Positions 5,766 through 62,278 of a stretch of DNA of 64,000 nucleotides are shown piece after piece; within the stretch, counting starts at the first letter, position 1, and each line of letters begins with the position of its first letter. Location: assembly GCA_963713615.1 (NCBI GenBank), contig CAVQMM010000001.1, forward strand, positions 2,688,001 to 2,752,000. Reading direction: 5' to 3'. Both the position numbers and the translations under genes were made by a program. This DNA comes from an uncultured Chlamydiae bacterium. GTDB lineage: Bacteria > Chlamydiota > Chlamydiia > Chlamydiales > JAJFMA01. The notes beneath the pieces are model-generated. The model had not been told where the DNA came from and did no database searches. It worked only from the letters and a program-made list of their open reading frames with translations.

Positions 5766-8021
5766 TCAATAGGGACGCAAGCCTACATCACCCAAAACGA
5801 TAACCCACGATGAAGTTCGATCAAACACAAAGCGAATACCGGCAAGTTTGGTAGGATCAAAGGCCGGTGTGACTTTCACAAAGTCCTTTAGGGGGAAAAC
5901 AAAACTCTGATAGACGATATCCGTGGACTCATCACTTTCTAAAAAGTCAGCCTTCCAAAGTTTAGCCCCTAAGGAGGGTTGCAAGGCACAGCAGTGACTC
6001 AAGGGCAGTCGCGCTTGATGGCCATCGCGGTCGATCACTTCAACCGTTAAGTCCACAGGTTCATCACTTCCCTCATAAGGCAATCCCATATTTGGGATGG
6101 GATGCTCTTCTGCATCGGCCATAACAAAAATCAGAGAGCTTTCAGGATTAATCACAACATCACTTTTCTCAGGAAGCTCAATCGTGTAACTAGGAGTGCC
6201 ATGCCCTGCGGAATGGTCCCATCCCAGAAAAACGGCTCTGGTATCCATGCAACCATACTTAAGGCACACTTCATGTTGCCGCCAGAGTGTCAGATTTTTG
6301 CCATACTGATGCCCCCCGGGGAGGCTCGTTTGGCTAACATCCAAGCCATTGTCAAAAGTGCTAATATAGCGATAGGTGGGATCAGCATATTGGGTAATAT
6401 AGACTGTTTTGGGCAGCCAATGCCCTCCCCAGCGATGATCGCGAAATAACTCTCGGTAGCCAATTTGTTTTTTTAATGTGGAATCAAGAAAGGCGCTAAC
6501 ATAGACCTGTGCAATGCGTCGTTGCTCTTCAGGGGGTAAGATGGGGCGTACATTTAACAGGTAGGCTTCGAGGGGCCATTGATCATACCTGCCCCACTTA
6601 GTATTGAACTGGCCGTGATTAGCTCCATAAATATATAGACTCGCCTTAAACCAATCTCCGCCATCATCAAGAACCACACGTTCATATTGCGAAGCCCCTT
6701 GAAAGGCGCGCACATCACCGTCATAGACGCCGTGCATGACTAAGTAGTTAATGTTTGATAAGGGCGTATGACGTCCAGTAGGTTGATATTGTGCGTCCAC
6801 AGGTGCAATGGCTATAACCGAGCGGATTCCAAAGTTGAAATCAAAGGAGATCATGCAGTCATCGGGATAGTAGGGTAAACGGTTAAATGCGGCAGCCAAC
6901 GCAACCGCCTCACCGCCTCTGGAATGCCCGATGAGGGCAACGTTGTTCATATCCACTTGTTCAAACAAGGGATTGTCGGAGCTTTTGTTCCAGTCGCGCC
7001 AGAGCTTCAGGTGCTGAAGGATGATCCAGGCCCGCGCATTATTGCGGCTAATGCCTTGCCAAAGACTATGCCAGGAACTGTTAAGGAAATTTTCGTCTAT
7101 GGAAGCAACGATATAGCCACGACTAGCGAGAAGTTTTCCGAGGTATTCATAGCCTGCGTCAGAGCTCATCTCCATCAATGAATTGCCATGCACAATAACG
7201 ACAAGAGGGAATGGTCCCTTTCCCTCAGGCATATAGACTCGTCCATTTAACGGCAGGGCATCTGGGCCGAAACCCCAGTAGTAAGTGCGCAACCATCCAG
7301 CCCACCCATACCAATCGTCAACGAAAGCAGTTCCATCGATTGGGGAAGTTATGATGGTTGCATGAGAATTAAACTCGGGTCGACGGATATCCTTACCAGA
7401 GCCATAGTACAAGGTACGTATCGCATACGGCCCCACCTCATCAGGACTTTCAAGAGTTGATGCCACTACCGAGTGAGTCGCTGAAGCATCGGTAGGAATC
7501 TGAATGTCTTCCCCTTCACTAAACGTCCAGATGCCAATGCCGACCAAAGCTACAGTACTCGCCAGAAAGGCAATGCCTACCAAAATATTCCTGAAAAATC
7601 CGGTAAAGCGCCAGCGACCCTTGATGTAAAAGGCCAATCCTGCGCCGAACAAAGCTACTGGTGGAAGAAGGTAGGCAGCTAGGATGAGGACAGTAGTGTT
7701 GTCTAATGTATCGAAAGCGACACACATCAGCAATACAGCAACCACCACCGACCAGCTAAAATAGGCGGGAAGCGCATAAATGATTGCCCAAAGCAGCAAG
7801 CCAAAAAAAACGGTTATGCCAGCTAGAGCGAACCCTCCAAAAGTGGCCAACCAAGGCACCAACCAGCGTGGAGGCGTGAGAAAATAACCGTGCACAAAGA
7901 TAGCCCATAACAATATCCCAATACATAAAATAGCCAGGGTGGCGCCTTTCCAAAATAAAGACGTCCTAACACCCAATCGATGTAACCACTCCGTGCTGTT
8001 TCGGTACCAATTCGAGCCCAT
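5766..8021 (-). CDS. Membrane-anchored alpha/beta hydrolase (chlorophyllase/lipase-like)
   Basis: N-terminal TM segments, then GPFPLVVIVHGN, LASRGYIVASID, nucleophile elbow GHSRGG, GANHGQFN. Likely start ATG 8021; the ORF-track extension is translated repeat DNA. Confidence 0.8.
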   Translation of the reverse strand: MGSNWYRNSTEWLHRLGVRTSLFWKGATLAILCIGILLWAIFVHGYFLTPPRWLVPWLATFGGFALAGITVFFGLLLWAIIYALPAYFSWSVVVAVLLMCVAFDTLDNTTVLILAAYLLPPVALFGAGLAFYIKGRWRFTGFFRNILVGIAFLASTVALVGIGIWTFSEGEDIQIPTDASATHSVVASTLESPDEVGPYAIRTLYYGSGKDIRRPEFNSHATIITSPIDGTAFVDDWYGWAGWLRTYYWGFGPDALPLNGRVYMPEGKGPFPLVVIVHGNSLMEMSSDAGYEYLGKLLASRGYIVASIDENFLNSSWHSLWQGISRNNARAWIILQHLKLWRDWNKSSDNPLFEQVDMNNVALIGHSRGGEAVALAAAFNRLPYYPDDCMISFDFNFGIRSVIAIAPVDAQYQPTGRHTPLSNINYLVMHGVYDGDVRAFQGASQYERVVLDDGGDWFKASLYIYGANHGQFNTKWGRYDQWPLEAYLLNVRPILPPEEQRRIAQVYVSAFLDSTLKKQIGYRELFRDHRWGGHWLPKTVYITQYADPTYRYISTFDNGLDVSQTSLPGGHQYGKNLTLWRQHEVCLKYGCMDTRAVFLGWDHSAGHGTPSYTIELPEKSDVVINPESSLIFVMADAEEHPIPNMGLPYEGSDEPVDLTVEVIDRDGHQARLPLSHCCALQPSLGAKLWKADFLESDESTDIVYQSFVFPLKDFVKVTPAFDPTKLAGIRFVFDRTSSWVIVLGDVGLRPY

Positions 8022-8129
8022 TGGCAAAATGCTCCTGTTTCTTTCTGTGATACCATAGCTGCGTACAAGATCAAGAAACTTTTTATGATGAGAGGTAGGA
8101 AGAGAGGAAGGGGAGGAGGAGAAGAGGAA

Positions 8130-9103
8130 AATAGGATTTTTACCACAGAGAACGCCGAGATAGAAGAGAGAAGAAAGGAAAGAAAAGGACAAATGGTTCA
8201 TCCGGTTTTGTAGGACTTGACTACACAGGCAGGCGTGAGCCCAAAAACATGATTCATAGGATATGAGGTAATTGCAGAAGTCCGATTTTCCGAAGTCAAT
8301 TTCCTGAAAATCGGATGCCGGTGAAGAGAGAGTCATTCCCTTCCGAGGCCCGAAGGGTCGATATTGCAACAGGCCATGGCATCGCCACATAGGCCTCAAC
8401 CTAAGCCTAACAATCGTATCTCGGCGCGCAGCGCTTTGGAGTGCGGTCGCTTGCGACCGCTTTGGGTTCCTTGCGACGGTCGTGTGCAACGGCATCACTA
8501 TAATTCCCTAAGGGTAAAATAGTTAGTACATGCAGCCTTCGACGAATCCATACAATGCCGTTTAGCATTGCCGTCCCAAGGAACGAAAAGCGGTCGCAAG
8601 CGACCGCACTCCAAAGCGCTGCGCGCCGAGATACGATTGTGAAGTCCTAAGTCATTGAGATATAAGCTCAAAAGACCTGTTAGGTTGAGGCCTATGTGGC
8701 ATCGCCATGGTATATGCCAAAACGGTTTTAGCAGCCTGTAGGGCTGCCATAAAGCGCATGCATAAATGGTGTTTGTAAACTGGCGTCTTGTAGCAGTCCT
8801 TCAGACTGCGAAATCCCTTCCTGGCATATACCATGGCCTGTTGCAATATCGACCCTTCGGGCCTGGGAAGGGAGTTTCCAGACTGGATAATGCCATACCA
8901 CTTAAGCTCTCCAGAATCGCCTTCTCACAAAAAAAAGTGATTTTTTTTCAAAGAATCGATCCATGAGAGCCCAAATACTTCTGCAATTACCTCATATGGA
9001 CATCTATTAAACAATAAACAAAAACCATTCGATTTTTCTTCTCCTTCCTCTTCCCTTTCCTCTTTCTCTCCTATCTCGGCGTTCTCTGTAGTAAAATCCT
9101 ATT
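8130..9103. repeat. Nested inverted-repeat composite, copy 1
   Basis: Outer AGGATTTTTACCACAGAG...GAGATAG inverted pair. Inside it, perfect 17-bp TIR GAGGTAATTGCAGAAGT (8265) / ACTTCTGCAATTACCTC (ends 8993), flanked by ATAT, then further IR layers. Related copies at 36908, 61372 and 12208. Confidence 0.9.
8388..8696 (+). mobile_element. 309-bp non-autonomous element (IS4/IS231-like MITE) carrying a REP-like hairpin doublet
   Basis: TIR CATAGGCCTCAACCTAA/TTAGGTTGAGGCCTATG; 11-bp direct repeat TGGCATCGCCA at 8377-8387 and 8697-8707. Confidence 0.85.
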
Positions 9104-9114
9104 CCTCACAAACC

Positions 9115-9143
9115 TTGACAAAAAATAACTGCATAGGTAAAAT
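9115..9143 (+). promoter_or_regulatory. sigma70/sigma66-type promoter
   Basis: TTGACA-N17-TAAAAT; predicted TSS about 9150-9151, at the ATG of uORF1. Confidence 0.75.
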
Positions 9144-9150
9144 TGTGGCT

Positions 9151-9228
9151 ATGAAAGCAAAAACTCAGGTTCACATCCTCGCACCCTCGGTAGTCTTCGG
9201 CTCCATGTCCTGCTTGATGCGCGGCTAG
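9151..9228 (+). CDS. Putative leader peptide 1 (MKAKTQVHILAPSVVFGSMSCLMRG)
   Basis: Starts at the predicted TSS; homologous to uORF2; stop lies within hairpin ATGCGC-GGCTA-GCGCAT. Confidence 0.6.
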   Translation: MKAKTQVHILAPSVVFGSMSCLMRG

Positions 9229-9243
9229 CGCATATCATTTTTT
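9215..9243 (+). terminator. Candidate attenuator terminator overlapping the uORF1 stop
   Basis: TGATGCGC-GGCTA-GCGCATATCA followed by TTTTTT. Confidence 0.45.
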
Positions 9244-9297
9244 CCTCTTAGCCTCATTTTGTCCCAACTTAGTGGTTTTGAAAAAGCAGGAACCCAT

Positions 9298-9360
9298 ATG
9301 AAAAAAGCATATCAAAATATTTCGGTTTTTAGCGTAATGCACTCGATCATGCGCACTTAG
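9298..9360 (+). CDS. Putative leader peptide 2 (MKKAYQNISVFSVMHSIMRT)
   Basis: AGGA upstream; same VFxxMxx[LI]MRx-stop motif and ATGCGC-N5-GCGCAT hairpin as uORF1. Confidence 0.6.
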   Translation: MKKAYQNISVFSVMHSIMRT

Positions 9361-9429
9361 CGCATATAATCAATACCACTCCAGCGTTATTACATTTCGA
9401 ATATTTTATTAGAGGTTTATAATTATATC

Positions 9430-10821
9430 ATGCACATTCGTACACTTAGTATCATTCTTGCTTGGGCCACTTCAGCACTTTGTGCCGATTGGCGGCCAGA
9501 CATCTACATCTATTCCGACTTTGGAGGAGGGCAAAACCATGCCCATGAGCCAATTGCTGACTGGCAGACAGCCATTGAATTAGCAGAAGAGGGCTGGAAG
9601 CTGACTCATCATCCAAAAATTTTCATCAACGACGCAGCAACCCCGCTTCATCCTCAAAGAGCTGCAGGTCAAGTCGCGGCAACCTTTCCTTATTTGGGCC
9701 CAAAGGAGACCTCGACGATTGAACGCATTGTCGTTCACGTGGTGGATCCTTCGGTCGGCAATGCAAGTCAGCATCGACGGGCATTAGTTTTGCGCCGCGA
9801 TGGAACTCTGTTCATCGGTCCCGATAATGGAACTTTGAGCGCAGCATGCCCACCCGGTTCGCTAGCGATGATCTGGGAGATCGATATCCCACGTCTCAGC
9901 GCTTCGACGGGTCTAGATGTAGCGGCAGGAGGAACCTTTCATGGACGCGACGTCTTCGCAGCAGCAGGATACCTTTTATCCGCTGGACGTTTATCACCTG
10001 AAGACATTGGCAAGCCCTATCAAACGGCTGAGTTGGCCGTCCGTGTTTCTCCAATAGGGGAGAGTTCTAAATGCATCACTTTTCAAGAGCTTCCCACAAC
10101 ACGATGGATGTTAGAGGTGGGTTCGGACTCGTTATTCTCCGACGCCTATTTCTTAGCTATCGTACAGTCACCCCTCTATGTTGATGCTTCGCATGCACAG
10201 CTATTTATCGTAGATGACCGCACGTTGACCGAACGTGTAGCCATACTGAACCGCAAAACCCAGAATCTTTATATCGGGCCCAACAATGGCTTGGGAACAG
10301 GTTTCTTTATGGGATTTGATAAAGAGGATATTTGGATGGCTGAAGTATCCCAGGCCGTTTATGAGATAATCAAGGCTACTTCAAATGTCGCTCTGGTACG
10401 TGACCTCATTTTTAGACAGCCCAGGTTTAAGGAGGAGCTGGTTGTGGTGGACCTGCTAGCCAGAGAAAATGAGAGTAAACATATCTCAGGACACGTGTGG
10501 GCAGATGCCTATGGCAATCTCAAAACAACTCTTGATAGTGAGTTATATCAAAGCTTAATCGATGAAGGTTACACCAATTTAACCGTTGCACTGAATGGAG
10601 TATCCAAACAGGTGCGTATAGCAGACTCTTTTGCTGATGTCCCTGCAGGGACTCCGTTCGCCTATGTGGGCAGCTCTGGAGCTGTAGGACCAAATCCGCA
10701 CCGTTCTCGTCGTTATGTCGAATTGACTACCAATGGCATCAACGGGCAATTCGGGGTTGATCTATTTGATAATCCCCAATCTGGACAAGTCATCGAATTT
10801 TATTTTACAAAAAACATTTAA
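9430..10821 (+). CDS. SAM hydrolase/SAM-dependent halogenase (DUF62) family protein with predicted signal peptide
   Basis: YSDFG, HVVDPSVG, FIGPDNG, TFHGRDVFA, DAYGNLKT motifs; N-terminus MHIRTLSIILAWATSALCA. Confidence 0.8.
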   Translation: MHIRTLSIILAWATSALCADWRPDIYIYSDFGGGQNHAHEPIADWQTAIELAEEGWKLTHHPKIFINDAATPLHPQRAAGQVAATFPYLGPKETSTIERIVVHVVDPSVGNASQHRRALVLRRDGTLFIGPDNGTLSAACPPGSLAMIWEIDIPRLSASTGLDVAAGGTFHGRDVFAAAGYLLSAGRLSPEDIGKPYQTAELAVRVSPIGESSKCITFQELPTTRWMLEVGSDSLFSDAYFLAIVQSPLYVDASHAQLFIVDDRTLTERVAILNRKTQNLYIGPNNGLGTGFFMGFDKEDIWMAEVSQAVYEIIKATSNVALVRDLIFRQPRFKEELVVVDLLARENESKHISGHVWADAYGNLKTTLDSELYQSLIDEGYTNLTVALNGVSKQVRIADSFADVPAGTPFAYVGSSGAVGPNPHRSRRYVELTTNGINGQFGVDLFDNPQSGQVIEFYFTKNI

Positions 10822-12192: not shown

Positions 12193-12371
12193 CAACGAAT
12201 ACACACGCAAAACGGTTTTAGCAGCCTGTAGGGCTGCCATAAAGCGCATGCATAAATGGTGTTTGTAAACTGGCATCTTGTAGAAGTCCTTCAGACTGCG
12301 AAATCCCTTCCTGGCATATACCATGGCGATGCCATGGCCTGTTGCAATATCGACCCTTCTACCATAGGATT

Positions 12372-12580
12372 TTGCAAACGATTATCGACGGTAATAGGAA
12401 AAGACAAAAAACATTTCTCTAAGGTATCATTTTGGCCGACGAAGGTGTGGCCGTGTGCCCTTAGCGAATGTTTGTTCGCCTGGCCCGATATGCCGCCTTC
12501 GTCGTTTGCATCATCCAATAATTCCGTTCGGGATGGTGCCAATCTTCTGATTGTGGCTCTGTAAGTAGAAGTGGAATTTG
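12372..12580 (+). ncRNA. Predicted IS110 bridge RNA (target-binding and donor-binding loops); 5' end approximate
   Basis: Stem 12437-45/12496-504 encloses CCCTT and GGCCCGA (target guides); stem 12520-25/12573-78 encloses CGGGATG and GTAGA (donor guides). Confidence 0.8.
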
Positions 12581-12622
12581 GGTGAAATTTAACGCTCACA
12601 AACACTTAACAGGGCATTTATC

Positions 12623-13819
12623 ATGCAAAATCAGTCCGAACTTCGTATTTGTCTAGATATCGGTAGCGTTCGACACTATGTAGCCATAGGCTTGTCCACA
12701 GGAGAACGCATCGATGGATTTTATCTAAACCACACTTCTGAAGACATTGAGCAGTTTTTTGAGAAAATTGAGAAGCTTAGAATTTCCTATAACATGCCTG
12801 TTGTCATGGCTATGGAGGGGTTTAATGGCTATGCTAGACCCATCGATAGATATGCTCTTGATCACGGATATTCTTTGTATAGTGTCAACAACATGAAATT
12901 GGCTAGATTTAAGGAAGTTTTTCCTGGTCCAGCCAAAACAGATCCAATTGACGCTTGGGCTATTTTTAGCTTGTTTCAAGTTCAAGAGACCTTACCGTTG
13001 GCAAAAAATATTCTGCAGAAAGTAGAGCCTCCACCGGTATGCAACGAGCAACTTAAACATATTTCAAGGCGTCGTAGAGAGTTGGTAAAAGAAAAGACAA
13101 GAATCATAAATCGACTTCAAGGGGATCTACAGGCTGTTTGCCCCGGTCTACTGTCTATTACAAAAAATCCAGCAAATCTTTGGTTTCTACGATTTCTTGC
13201 TTCGAAGGAAGACATGACCATGTTGCTTCGAATGCAAAAAAGAAGCCTGTTGCAAATCAAGGGCGTTGGAGAGGTTTATGCAGAGGAAATTCAGAAATGG
13301 CAAAAGACGGCTAAGTTCTCTTCAAAGGTTGAGTGGATAGGAAAATTAATAGTACGAGATGTCAGAAGGCTACTCGAGATGCTAGATGAAATAGCGCAGT
13401 TGGAGGTATTGATAGAGGGTTTGATCCCACAATCCAAGATAGCATCTCGGATTGAATCTATTCCTGGATATGGTTCCATTTGTGCCGCAGAACTCGCTGG
13501 AGAGATTGGTAGTATCGATCGGTTTAAGTCGGAGGCTAGTCTAGCGCTCTACTTGGGAATAGGAATTCTGAACAAGAGTTCTGGCCAATATGAGGGGTCT
13601 CGATCGCCTCGAAATATTAACTGGAGGGGAAAGGGAGCTATGATGACCGGAGCTGCTCGACATATACAACTATGTGATGAGGCTGCACAGTACTACAAGA
13701 AGAAGAGAGCAGAGGGAAAAAAACATAACCAAGCAGTACGAGCATTTGCCCGTCATATGATAAGAGTAATATGGTCGATACTCATACATGACAGGGATTA
13801 CCGTCAGAAGGAAGACTGA
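12623..13819 (+). CDS. IS110-family recombinase/transposase (DEDD RuvC-like plus Tnp20 domain)
   Basis: CLDIG, AMEG, KTDPIDA (DEDD); SIPGYG, F.SEASLA.YLG, NKSSG (candidate catalytic Ser), YYKKKRAEGKKHNQA. Confidence 0.95.
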   Translation: MQNQSELRICLDIGSVRHYVAIGLSTGERIDGFYLNHTSEDIEQFFEKIEKLRISYNMPVVMAMEGFNGYARPIDRYALDHGYSLYSVNNMKLARFKEVFPGPAKTDPIDAWAIFSLFQVQETLPLAKNILQKVEPPPVCNEQLKHISRRRRELVKEKTRIINRLQGDLQAVCPGLLSITKNPANLWFLRFLASKEDMTMLLRMQKRSLLQIKGVGEVYAEEIQKWQKTAKFSSKVEWIGKLIVRDVRRLLEMLDEIAQLEVLIEGLIPQSKIASRIESIPGYGSICAAELAGEIGSIDRFKSEASLALYLGIGILNKSSGQYEGSRSPRNINWRGKGAMMTGAARHIQLCDEAAQYYKKKRAEGKKHNQAVRAFARHMIRVIWSILIHDRDYRQKED

Positions 13820-14408
13820 GTTAGTTTAGCAAACGGGCTTTGTTCTGTTTGGCCTGAATGAACAAGGTCAGCAAATTCGGCGATGTTAGCTGAGCAGAAA
13901 AGGAGCACGGCTACTCTGCTTCGGCAACCCCATAGGAGTTGTATACAACCTTCCTAAGTAAATTCACCGTGTCCCTTCGCAGTTGAAAGGAGCACGGCTA
14001 CTCTACTTCGGCTCTATAAATTTAGCAAAATTAGAAAATAATTAAAAGTTTCAAAACCGAAGGAATTGGCATCGAAAAATCGCCTGAAAGCTACGAAAAA
14101 TCTTGAAAAATTCTAGCGGGATGTCGGGCCTGGGAAGGGAGAAAAGCCTGTCTTTCCAGACTGGATAGTGCCATACCACTTAAGCTCTCTAGAATCGCCT
14201 TCTCACAAAAAAAGGTAACCTTTTTTCCCGAGAATCGATTCTCAAGGGCTCAAATAATTTTGCAATTACCTCAAAGGGACAAAAAGGACTCAGGAGGCAT
14301 ACTCTACAAGTCCTTTATGTCTTTTATGTTCCTTTGGTCCTTTAGTCCAGTCCATCCAAGAGCGACACGCACTTCTGAGGGCCTTGTGCATGCTATTCGC
14401 CCGGCACA

Positions 14409-31285: not shown

Positions 31286-31637
31286 GTAATCGTTCAAGGG
31301 GTAAAAGAATCCGAGCCCGTGTGCGTGCCCATATGCGTTAAGCTAAGTGAATTAGGAATTTTTACCGCCGAGACGCAGAGATAGGAGAGAGAGGATTAGG
31401 AGAGAATCGTATTCCTGCGGGAACCCTTAGACTGGATTTTGTCCAGAGTCGGTGGTAACTGAACATTCTTCCCTCTTCCCCCTCCTCTCTTTCCTATCTC
31501 GGCGCCTCGGCGGTAAAAATCCTAAAAAAGCCCCACGAACTTCTATGCGTCTCGGCGGTGAAAATTTCTAATTCTCTTAGCTTAAAGTGTATGGGCACGC
31601 ACACGGGCTCGGATTCTTTTATCCCTTGAACGGTTAC
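31286..31637. repeat. Long inverted-repeat element, family C, copy 1
   Basis: About 95-bp imperfect arms GTAATCGTTCAAGGG...CCGCCGAGACGCA / TGCGTCTCGGCGG...CCCTTGAACGGTTAC. Confidence 0.88.
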
Positions 31638-36907: not shown

Positions 36908-37597
36908 GAGGTAATTGCAGAAGTCCGATTTCCGAAGTCAATTCCTGAAACTCGAATACAATCGAAGAGAGAGAGAAGCGATTCCCTTCCTAGGCCCGAA
37001 GGGTCGATATTGCAACAGGCCAGGGCATCGCCCCATAGGCCTCAACCTAAGCCTAACAATCGTATCTCGGCGCGCAGCGCTTTGGAGTGCGGTCGCTTGC
37101 GACCGCTTTGGGTTCCTTGCGACGGTCGTGTGCAACGGCATTACTATAATTCCCTAAGGGTAAAATAGTTAGTACATGCAGCCTTCGACGAATCCATACA
37201 ATGCCGTTTAGCATTGCCGTCCCAAGGAACGAAAAGCGGTCGCAAGCGACCGCACTCCAAAGCGCTGCGCGCCGAGATACGATTGTGAAGTCCTAAGTCA
37301 TTGAGATATAAGCTCAAAAGACCTGTTAGGTTGAGGCCTATGGGGCATCGCCCTGGTATACGCCAGGATAGGGTTTCGCAGTCTGAAAGACTGCCACAAG
37401 ATGCCGGTTTGCACACACCATTTATGCATGCTTTCTATGGCAGTCCTTCGAGGCTGACAGGAAATATCCCTTGGCCTGTTGCAATATCGACCCTTCGGGC
37501 CTAGGAGGGAGTAAGGGCCTGTGTCTCCAGGCCAGATAGTGCCATGCCATCTGAGTTCTCTAGAATTGCCTTCTCGCAAAAAAAGGTAACATTTTTT
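36908..37597. repeat. Nested composite repeat, copy 2 (diverged host, right TIR missing)
   Basis: GAGGTAATTGCAGAAGT start; same layers as copy 1, with the second module inverted. Confidence 0.88.
37034..37342 (+). mobile_element. 309-bp IS231-like MITE, copy 2
   Basis: Same TIRs; 11-bp TSD GGGCATCGCCC. Confidence 0.87.
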
Positions 37598-47549: not shown

Positions 47550-47960
47550 GAATCCGAGCCCGAGCCCGTATGCATGCCCATATACGTTAAGCTAAGAGAA
47601 TTAGGAATTTTCACCGCCGAGGCGCCGAGACACCGAGATAGGAGAGAGAGGATTAGGAGAGAATGTGCCGTTTGTGTGTCCTTGGACAGCATTTTGCCCA
47701 AGGACACACAAACGGCACAGGTGCTCAATCTAACTTTTTTTGTTAAATTGAGAACCTGTTCAGTTACTGCTCTGGACAAAACCCAGTCTAAGGGCTCTAC
47801 AGAATCTTATTCTTGCGGGAACCCTTAGACTGGGTTTTGTCCAGAGCAGTAACTGAAAATTCTCTCCTCTCTTTCCTAATCTCGGTGTCTCGGCGGTGAA
47901 AATTCCTAATTCTCTTGGCTTAACGCATATGGGCTCGAGCTCCTACCCAGAACGGTTACC
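47550..47960. repeat. Family C element, copy 2, enclosing three tandem hairpins
   Basis: Arms match 31286-31637; internal perfect 22-bp and 36-bp stems. Confidence 0.88.
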
Positions 47961-61254: not shown

Positions 61255-62278
61255 TAGGATTTTTACCACAGAGGACACAGAGTGCTCTGAGATAGGAGAG
61301 AGAGGAGGGATTTATTTTTTTTTATTTAATAGATGCCCATGGGGTCCATTAGTGTCCATGCTGTCCATTAAGAGGTAATTGCAGAAGTCCGATTCTCCGA
61401 ATTCAATTTCCTGAAAATCGGATGCCGGTGAAGAGAGAGTCATTCCCTTCCCAGGCCCGAAGGGTCGATATTGCAACAGGCCATGGCATCGCCACATAGG
61501 CCTCAACCTAACAGGTCTTTTGAGCTTATATCTCAATGACTTAGGACTTCACAATCGTATCTCGGCGCGCAGCGCTTTGGAGTGCGGTCGCTTGCGACCG
61601 CTTTTCGTTCCTTGGGACGGCAATGCTAAACGGCATTGTATGGATTCGTCGAAGGCTGCATGTACTAACTATTTTACCCTTAGGGAATTATAGTGATGCC
61701 GTTGCACACGACCGTCGCAAGGAACCCAAAGCGGTCGCAAGCGACCGCACTCCAAAGCGCTGCGCGCCGAGATACGATTGTTAGGCTTAGGTTGAGGCCT
61801 ATGTGGCATCGCCATGGTATATGCCAAAACGGTTTTAGCAGCCTGTAGGGCTGCCATAAAGCGCATGCATAAATGGTGTTTGTAAACTGGCGTCTTGTAG
61901 CAGTCCTTCAGACTGCGAAATCCCTTCCTGGCATATACCATGGCGATGCCATGGCCTGTTGCAATATCGACCCTTCGGGCCTGGGAAGGGAGAAAAGCCT
62001 GTCTTTCCAGACTGGATAGTGCCATACCACTTAAGCTCTCTAGAATCGCCTTCTCACAAAAAAAGGTAACCTTTTTTCCCGAGAATCGATTCTCAAGGGC
62101 TCAAATAATTTTGCAATTACCTCATTAATGTCCATTTTTTCTGAAGCAAAAATGGACTTTATAGACAGTAATTGACCTTATAAACATTTATTAAACAAAA
62201 AAAATAAAAAACCTATCCAATGTTTCCTTCTTTTCTCCTATCTCTGTGCACTCTGTGTCCTCTGCGGTAAAAATCTTA
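61255..62278. repeat. Nested composite repeat, copy 3 (GAGGTAATTGC element 61372-62123)
   Basis: Outer ACCACAGAGGACACAGAG pair, about 9-bp-periodic GTCCAT repeats, TIR element flanked by ATTAA. Confidence 0.9.
61495..61803 (-). mobile_element. 309-bp IS231-like MITE, copy 3, opposite orientation
   Basis: Reverse complement of 8388-8696 within same-orientation flanks; TSD TGGCATCGCCA. Confidence 0.88.

Follow-up and report, generated by a model that had tools for sequence, protein, structure and literature searches.

A five-layer nest of inverted repeats in a chlamydia-like genome, probably built by successive site-specific insertions of non-coding elements

How does a compact bacterial genome come to hold inverted repeats enclosed within one another five layers deep? 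The question is raised by positions 8130-9103 of a 64,000-nucleotide stretch of DNA from an uncultured Chlamydiae bacterium (the window, C1:2688001-2752000 of a 3.97-Mb assembly, label G000, with 3 contigs and 99.1% completeness), where a 974-nt stack of such repeats is placed with divergent genes on both sides. A reading made from the sequence alone had described at least five concentric layers at this locus, and had proposed that successive non-autonomous elements target each other's hairpins and then move as a unit. The analysis here presented indicates that the stack is real and that it probably arose by successive site-specific insertions of non-coding elements into palindromic sites of older ones, not by copying of the whole stack.

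Direct reading together with a repeat search of window positions 7900-9400 located all five of the pairs described. From outside to inside these are an outermost pair (E1, 8138-8169 with 9065-9096; 32 nt, 94% complementary), a pair formed by the terminal inverted repeats (TIRs) of an element plus the adjoining ATAT (E2, 8261-8281 with 8977-8997; 21 nt, 100%), the arms of a long hairpin (E3, 8337-8382 with 8828-8873; 46 nt, 96%), the ends of a MITE, or miniature inverted-repeat transposable element (E4, 8374-8404 with 8680-8710; 31 nt, 90%), and an innermost pair (E5, 8410-8495 with 8555-8640; 86 nt, 90%) that is perfect over its outer 54 nt, as had been read. The layers themselves are taken as spanning 8132-9101 (E1), 8265-8993 (E2), 8337-8873 (E3), 8388-8696 (E4) and 8410-8640 (E5). 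Folded as single-stranded DNA, the 974 nt reach -298.7 kcal/mol against -118 +/- 6 in shuffles (n=20; z = -30). A BLAST comparison of the stack with its own genome, where repeats of >=85% identity make up 15.4% of contig C1, returned 1308 high-scoring segment pairs (HSPs), their ends clustering at the layer boundaries with pile-ups at 8265/8993, 8337/8873 and 8387/8697. Each layer was found somewhere, in this genome or in a relative, without the others, and the layers are thereby supported as separable non-autonomous modules.

At the junction between E4 and E3, the 309-bp MITE formed by E4 and E5 lies at 8388-8696 (+), bears ends CATAGGCCTCAACCTAAG with the signature of the IS231 subgroup of insertion sequences (IS), and is flanked by an 11-bp target duplication, TGGCATCGCCA, at 8377-8387 on the left and 8697-8707 on the right, so that the MITE with a target site duplication and CATAGG ends noticed earlier is indeed present. 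Among the 95 E4 end pairs of the genome, a perfect 11-bp duplication is found in 71, one of 10 bp in 3 and none in 21. Their location is strongly biased, with 81 of the 95 in the E3 site KGGC(ATC/GAT)GCCM (in its 17-bp form, CCATGGCATCGCCATGG); of the rest, E5-type arms hold 5, and 9 lie in different or variant contexts. Empty E3 sites hold the 11-mer once per site. According to Table 1 of PMC2266710, the IS231 subgroup of the IS4 family has the end signature CAT-------AA--TAA and a direct repeat of 10-12 bp, and the same source, as of 2008, places the subgroup almost exclusively in Bacillus cereus sensu lato. The sequence CATAGGCCTCAACCTAAG, with CAT at 1-3, AA at 11-12 and TAA at 15-17, fits this signature. 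IS231A shows a target preference for GGG(N)5CCC, which the E4 sites GGGCATCGCCC and TGGCATCGCCA would presumably fit.

Among 250 further genomes of the same order, 19 contain the E4 end motif, while a reversed control pattern gave 3 matches in 3 of the 251 genomes searched. In one of these relatives (G228, contig C22), a 1746-bp element with E4-type ends encodes a 488-aa open reading frame (ORF) that is a transposase assigned at the level of the IS4 family only, not of a subgroup (NF033592, 184.4 bits, cut-off 115). A homologue of this transposase was not found in the genome under study by protein comparison, and the family model gave there only sub-threshold matches, to IS1634-like copies. 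E4 resembles the IS231 subgroup and MIC231 of the Bacillus cereus group in its ends, its 11-bp duplication, its strongly site-specific insertion and its IS4-type coding relative, and differs from them in its chlamydia-like host, in having no cognate transposase in the genome, and in carrying a REPIN-like hairpin cargo instead of genes. The MITE looks recently active. In a relative from another family (G023), a 311-bp E4-type MITE contains no E5 arms (L013 453-763) and holds an E1-like stretch, GGTAAAAA..ACCACAGAG..CACAGAGAG, which suggests that shell motifs travel between element types across the order.

The element that receives this MITE is itself a mobile unit. E2 and E3 together (E23, 8265-8993 (+)) measure 432 bp in the empty form and here carry the 309-bp insert; the TIR, GAGGTAATTGCAGAAGT, stands at 8265-8281 and 8977-8993, its 17 bp perfect at this locus, and is flanked by a 4-bp target duplication, ATAT (8261-8264 and 8994-8997). 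E3, the cargo of E2, is the long hairpin at 8337-8873 that holds the 11-bp palindromic landing site of E4. Genome-wide, 95 full 432-bp copies were obtained among 198 chains, and a perfect direct repeat of at least 4 bp adjoins the TIR ends in 43 of 92 E2 copies; these repeats are AT-rich and mostly not self-complementary, and must therefore reflect true target duplications. With TIRs, a target duplication, small size, no coding content and many copies, E2+E3 has the generic features of a MITE. Its copies are embedded in arrays where GGAC/GTCC words recur every 9-10 bp, often palindromically arranged, and at least five such words are present in the 120 flanking bp of 57 of the 95 copies against 0.4% of random places. 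These arrays are the preferred landing ground of E2 (in the window, for example, 61300-61371 and 62124-62200), and they are present also in congeners G001 and G002.

The same TIRs enclose other cargo elsewhere, including minimal forms of 66 and 84 bp in the own genome and 165-bp MITEs in congener G002, and, of 250 further genomes of the order, 12 contain them, with only small pairs in those read. E2 is therefore regarded as a TIR family of its own, with E3 as its cargo here. A lone E2 TIR on G002:C17 was considered as a lead to a transposase and rejected, ordinary genes coming next to it. As for E3, hairpins of its kind without E2 adjoin, on one side only, an IS200-like Y1 gene elsewhere in the genome (NF033573, 57.6 bits, cut-off 55); at this place (C1:3243391-3245800) the gene is directly followed by four or more long hairpins of the E3 kind in tandem, whose ~300-bp spacers are mutually similar. 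That E3 is a module related to repetitive extragenic palindromes (REPs) is a lead, no more. Tandem repetition also occurs with E2 included, as five E2+E3 copies with 43-bp spacers at C1:476526-478848.

The innermost layer is a REPIN-like hairpin pair at 8410-8640, in whose arms lie two small hairpins with 8-bp stems, GCGGTCGC-TT-GCGACCGC at 8443-8460 and GCGGTCGC-AA-GCGACCGC at 8590-8607. It belongs to a superfamily of ~220-bp elements with ~60-nt arms and several unrelated centres, of which 430 arms and 148 adjacent pairs were counted genome-wide. No duplication stands at the palindrome ends in 137 of these 148 pairs, and 82 of them are not enclosed by CATAGGCCTCAACC-type E4 ends, some being placed in variant E4-type ends. 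The search for a RAYT that had been suggested was successful for this layer: a single-copy gene of 196 aa (C1:3256585-3257175) is a REP-associated tyrosine transposase, RAYT (NF047646, 83.7 bits, cut-off 80), flanked on each side by three E5-type units in inverted orientation, with a copy depth of 1 for the gene against ~359 for the flanking units. A RAYT gene between inverted units is the REPtron layout of REPIN-RAYT systems, as described in PMC3116915 and PMC3733652, the latter of which also records REP dimers within larger palindromes in three species and gives classical REPs as 20-40 bp long with a conserved GTAG or CGTC tag. E5 lies outside this definition of size and tag, as its arms are of ~60 nt and its outer end is ACAATCGT plus a variable base, with no fixed tag. 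E5 is like REPIN-RAYT systems in its inverted hairpin doublet, in the inverted units around a single-copy RAYT gene and in leaving no target duplication, but differs from them in its ~60-nt arms, in a ~100-bp spacer that exists in several unrelated versions, in having no clear GTAG/CGTC tag, and in that most copies of this E5 subtype ride within a DDE-type MITE. Two "CAT..." modules (M3 and M4) were considered as true ends of E5-type elements and rejected, as no duplications are found there and M3 extends outward.

In the unpaired centres of E5-type elements there are C or G runs of widely differing length, from 5 to ~26, sometimes followed by CA repeats (e.g. C1:1820229-1820450, 1077124-1077335 and 1829443-1829680). 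A second REPtron was observed at C1:3872450-3873850, where a single-copy Y1 gene (PF01797, 97.9 bits) is placed between inverted flanking units of another hairpin family, GCACCGCTTTGCGGTGC..., of ~25 copies.

At other loci, hairpins of the kinds found in the stack also receive whole IS elements (family names from NCBIfam models), and do so at fixed positions. A 2295-bp IS66 element (NF033517, 356 bits, cut-off 180; TnpA and TnpB models match too), with an 8-bp duplication GTCGCRAG, has 17 of its 18 full copies in the loop of GCGGTCGC-TY-GCGACCGC, the hairpin of E5-type arms. The nested copies are distributed over both arms, both orientations relative to the arm and several E5 subtypes, and are therefore independent events. 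All seven copies of an IS110 element follow (C)CCTTC in an E3-type arm, six of them after CGACCCTTC and one after the variant CTGCCCTTC, and all seven copies of an IS1634-like element (290 bits) occupy a fixed site in E5 arms. Six other IS families, used as a control and present in 2-10 copies each, have 0 or 1 nested copies, which argues against the mere survival of insertions in harmless DNA. The proposal that elements target each other's hairpins is thus borne out, since E4, IS66, IS110 and the IS1634-like element are each found at exact positions in the palindromes of others.

IS that target REPs or other palindromic units are known, among them IS1397 and ISKpn1 in enterobacterial palindromic units and IS110/IS1111 members in REPs or attC sites. 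The elements described here resemble them in using one fixed position within a repeated hairpin, and differ in that their targets are mobile elements themselves nested in further elements. To our knowledge, the IS66 and IS1634 families are not known for palindrome targeting, and a literature search retrieved no description of hairpin specificity for IS66.

E1 is the outer foldback shell. Its left arm (8132-8169, HSP start at 8132) consists of TAGGATTTTTACC with short CAGAG/CCGAG repeats and a tract rich in purines after it, and its right arm (9065-9101, HSP end at 9101) is complementary to 8138-8169. In the family, arms are organized as GGATTTTTACC, a variable count of 8-mers of the CAGAG/CCGAG kind and ATAGGAGAGAG, and about 60 of them were found per strand genome-wide. 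The number of 8-mers varies among copies, often symmetrically in the two arms, and the interiors of the shells differ, some of them being GGAC arrays without E2. For the two stacks of the window that have E1, it is true, as had been stated, that the outer arms of a locus resemble each other more than those of other loci; as a genome-wide rule this was rejected, the own partner being the best one in only 6 of 40 E1 pairs.

No insert is present in 40 of the 95 full copies of E2+E3; the 309-bp MITE is found at two symmetric sites in the states A- (14 copies), A+ (12), B+ (6) and B- (3), another 8 also carry IS66, and a few are complex cases. For the 38 composites with one 309-bp insert, median divergence is 7.2% in the outer element and 0.3% in the inner one, and outer distances show no correlation with inner ones (Mantel r = -0.11; an r as high in 1732 of 2000 permutations), which indicates that the inner layer arrived later, copy by copy. 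On a FastTree tree of the outer parts, built on 432 columns and weak, the five states need 40 changes against 45.3 +/- 2.1 when shuffled (18 of 1000 as low).

Comparison with relatives concurs with this order as far as it reaches. The stack as a whole found no match beyond short end motifs in 30 relatives. Empty sites in related genomes, which the sequence-only reading had proposed to compare, were looked for upstream of the orthologues of the gene at 9430, a comparison that covers the right part of the region, as the contigs end 529 (G001) and 377 (G002) bp upstream of the gene. In G002, whose orthologue has 48% protein identity, all that the orthologous promoter region contains of the stack is a small E1 shell without contents, placed directly before a TTGACAAAAA box as in the window, with the inner layers absent, which supports the outer-first order. 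In G001, GTCC arrays stand upstream of the orthologue, and for G003 the query used for this locus gave no match. The leader of the gene at 9430 also contains twice a palindromic word, ATGCGCGGCTAGCGCAT (9217-9238 and 9349-9370), found again upstream of the G002 orthologue (L030, ~240-265), and this word may be a conserved regulatory site.

The sequence itself shows an E2 TIR element with its 4-bp duplication, carrying the E3 hairpin, inside an E1 foldback shell; the 309-bp MITE, with IS231-type ends and an 11-bp duplication, has landed in one 11-bp quasi-palindrome of E3; the interior of this MITE is a REPIN-like pair of the family that flanks the single-copy RAYT gene; and at other loci such hairpins have in addition taken up IS66, IS110 and IS1634, each at the fixed position where it now stands. 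The transposases would presumably recognise the palindromes. E3 and E5 may have entered their shells by Y1/HUH-type insertion, leaving no duplication, and each would then have travelled with its shell; the order of events would run from the outer layer to the inner one.

Several observations weigh against this succession of insertions. No transposase with E2-matching ends was found in any searched place, including the surroundings of the single-copy DDE genes of the genome (beside the single-copy DDE_Tnp_1 genes, none was found for E2, E4 or E5 ends), and none for E4 is present in the own genome, though hardly any differences separate the E4+E5 copies. There is no duplication at the E2/E3 and E4/E5 junctions, so that "insertion" at them is argued from the independence of the modules and from their link to Y1 genes, which in the case of E3 is a single adjacency. 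The further points on this side concern copying and recombination, and are best considered together with the explanations that they favour.

The first of these is that whole composites were copied as units after the nest had formed once or a few times, which is considered unlikely. It would agree with the constant association of E3 with E2 and of E5 with E4, with the existence of tandem arrays of whole E2+E3 units, and with the clustering of filled and empty copies on the outer tree (18 changes against 29.6 +/- 2.4 shuffled; 0 of 1000 as low). The clustering means that some lineage effect remains, and some copying of filled composites, or a target loss specific to subfamilies, may have contributed. 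But this explanation is at odds with inner elements that diverge by 0.3% inside outer ones that diverge by 7.2% without any correlation, with four site-by-orientation states that need at least 40 changes on the tree (45.3 +/- 2.1 shuffled), with the 40 empty outer elements of 95, with the position of only 2 of these 95 full copies between two E1 arms, and with IS66 in both arms and both orientations. Unit copying at the level of E2+E3 and E4+E5 is thereby largely refuted. Movement as a unit, as originally proposed for the stack, is retained for E3 within E2, which has 4-bp duplications at the E2 ends, and for E5 within E4, which has 11-bp duplications at the E4 ends, but not for the whole stack, given the Mantel result and the empty copies.

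Alternatively, the growth of the palindromes could be due chiefly to exchange among related hairpin modules, through recombination, gene conversion or foldback synthesis, with transposition in a minor role. Recombination is certainly active as well, as reflected by the five E2+E3 copies in tandem array, by flanks that are inverted, not direct, in seven E4 pairs, by mosaic and mismatched end modules on E5-type elements, by the inverted E3 core of the copy at 36908 (see below), and by E1 arms that vary in 8-mer number, often symmetrically. As the principal process it is nonetheless improbable, since precise duplications of 4, 8 and 11 bp mark three junction classes, clean empty sites exist, and only 6 of 40 E1 pairs have their own arm as best partner.

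A third explanation, that the stack or its outer shell is kept for a host function, for instance as an insulator, terminator or protein-binding array between divergent genes, finds some agreement in its placement between such genes and in the E1 shell standing at the same place before the TTGACAAAAA box of the G002 orthologue despite 48% protein identity; it is very improbable considering that (i) the search of 7900-9400 against Rfam gave zero family matches at E up to 1, (ii) the G002 locus lacks the inner layers, and (iii) copy numbers as well as duplications are what selfish elements show. Finally, an assembly artefact, with repeats collapsed or wrongly chained, has a negligible probability, the only would-be signal being a highly repetitive region (15.4% of C1) and no supporting evidence having been found, against 3 contigs with 99.1% completeness, dozens of copies with their own flanks and duplications, and junction-bridging contigs in four metagenome runs.

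In these metagenome contigs, from four peat or soil runs, layer units are present at >=99% identity, the E3/E4 junction is bridged, and the IS66 end stands at the same hairpin. No contig of the four runs covers the unique flanks of the stack, and the evidence, which speaks against an assembly artefact, thus concerns layer units and not the same locus. Contigs of four metagenome runs also contain a head-to-tail joint of E2+E3 copies, with 33 letters between the sides.

The reading by successive insertions can be extended to a self-assembling hierarchy of landing pads, in which the exact palindromic target of one family is supplied by the family before it and no fewer than six transposition systems are thereby directed into each other, not into genes. 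Such a hierarchy is possible, although for the moment it is rather to be doubted than assumed; the systems that it would tentatively comprise are the foldback shell, the DDE element with 4-bp duplication, the Y1-linked hairpin, the IS231-type DDE element, the RAYT-REPIN pair, and then IS66, IS110 and IS1634. If true, it would explain the mobile and other repeated DNA at ~15% of a gene-dense chlamydia-like genome, and this IS66 would be the first of its family with hairpin-loop specificity. Should the reading by successive insertions be right, target choice, not selection alone, would crowd selfish elements into one another in a compact bacterial genome; the six IS families that are not nested argue against a pure survival filter. 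Three base-exact pairs are offered for testing: the IS231-type end with the 11-bp palindrome, IS66 with the hairpin loop, and RAYT with the 60-nt arms.

Among the parts, known kinds are represented by the MITE with IS231-type ends, the REPIN with its RAYT gene and the palindrome-choosing IS. It is unusual that the nest is so deep, that layers of DDE type (with duplications) alternate with layers of Y1 type (without), that the targets form a chain exact to the base, that an IS231-type end occurs outside Bacillus and that an IS66 has a fixed hairpin site. Plant MITEs, as in rice and maize, insert preferentially into other MITEs and produce multi-level nests. The stack differs from these in lying in a bacterial genome, in alternating DDE layers that have duplications with Y1/HUH-type hairpins that do not, and in insertion exact to the base. 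In a literature search of titles and abstracts, neither such repeats nor MITEs were described in the chlamydia group, and no bacterial multi-level nests were found, the one match on nested MITEs concerning fungi; a paper on Thiomargarita describes MITEs and, in the part concerned with them, no nesting.

Other copies are present inside the window. A second complete stack occupies 61257-62276, with E1 cores at 61257 and 62276, E2+E3 at 61372-62123 and a 309-bp MITE at ~61495-61803 in opposite orientation with regard to that of the first stack. Layers 2-5 had been said to recur both here and at 36908, where the recurrence is only a truncated one (36908-37597 (+)), without the right E2 TIR and the E1 arms and with the E3 core inverted. 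The part of a stack announced at 12208 corresponds to a partial E2+E3 copy at 12208-14272 (+), which covers positions 134-432 of the 432-bp reference copy and is split by one of the seven IS110-family copies, an element of 1764 bp (12360-14123; transposase ORF 12623-13819, NF033542, 173.7 bits, cut-off 140). This element shows the features of its family, namely the transposase, no long TIR and a site-specific insertion. In addition, an E1-type shell without inner layers lies at 31356-31522, with a related copy at ~47560-47937.

The stacks also leave traces in gene prediction. A minus-strand ORF of 910 aa (5766-8498) enters the stack at 8130-9103, its first ~130 codons being read from E2-E5 DNA, and its true start is therefore probably near 8050. 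A 184-aa "protein family" among the repeats of the genome is the same artefact as this extended ORF, and stacks thus explain the false extension of nearby reading frames and the inflation of ORF calls in annotation. Finally, the genome is called chlamydia-like on account of its 12 matches to the TLC nucleotide-transporter family, five of them in a row at C1:2754372-2762575, just past the end of the window.

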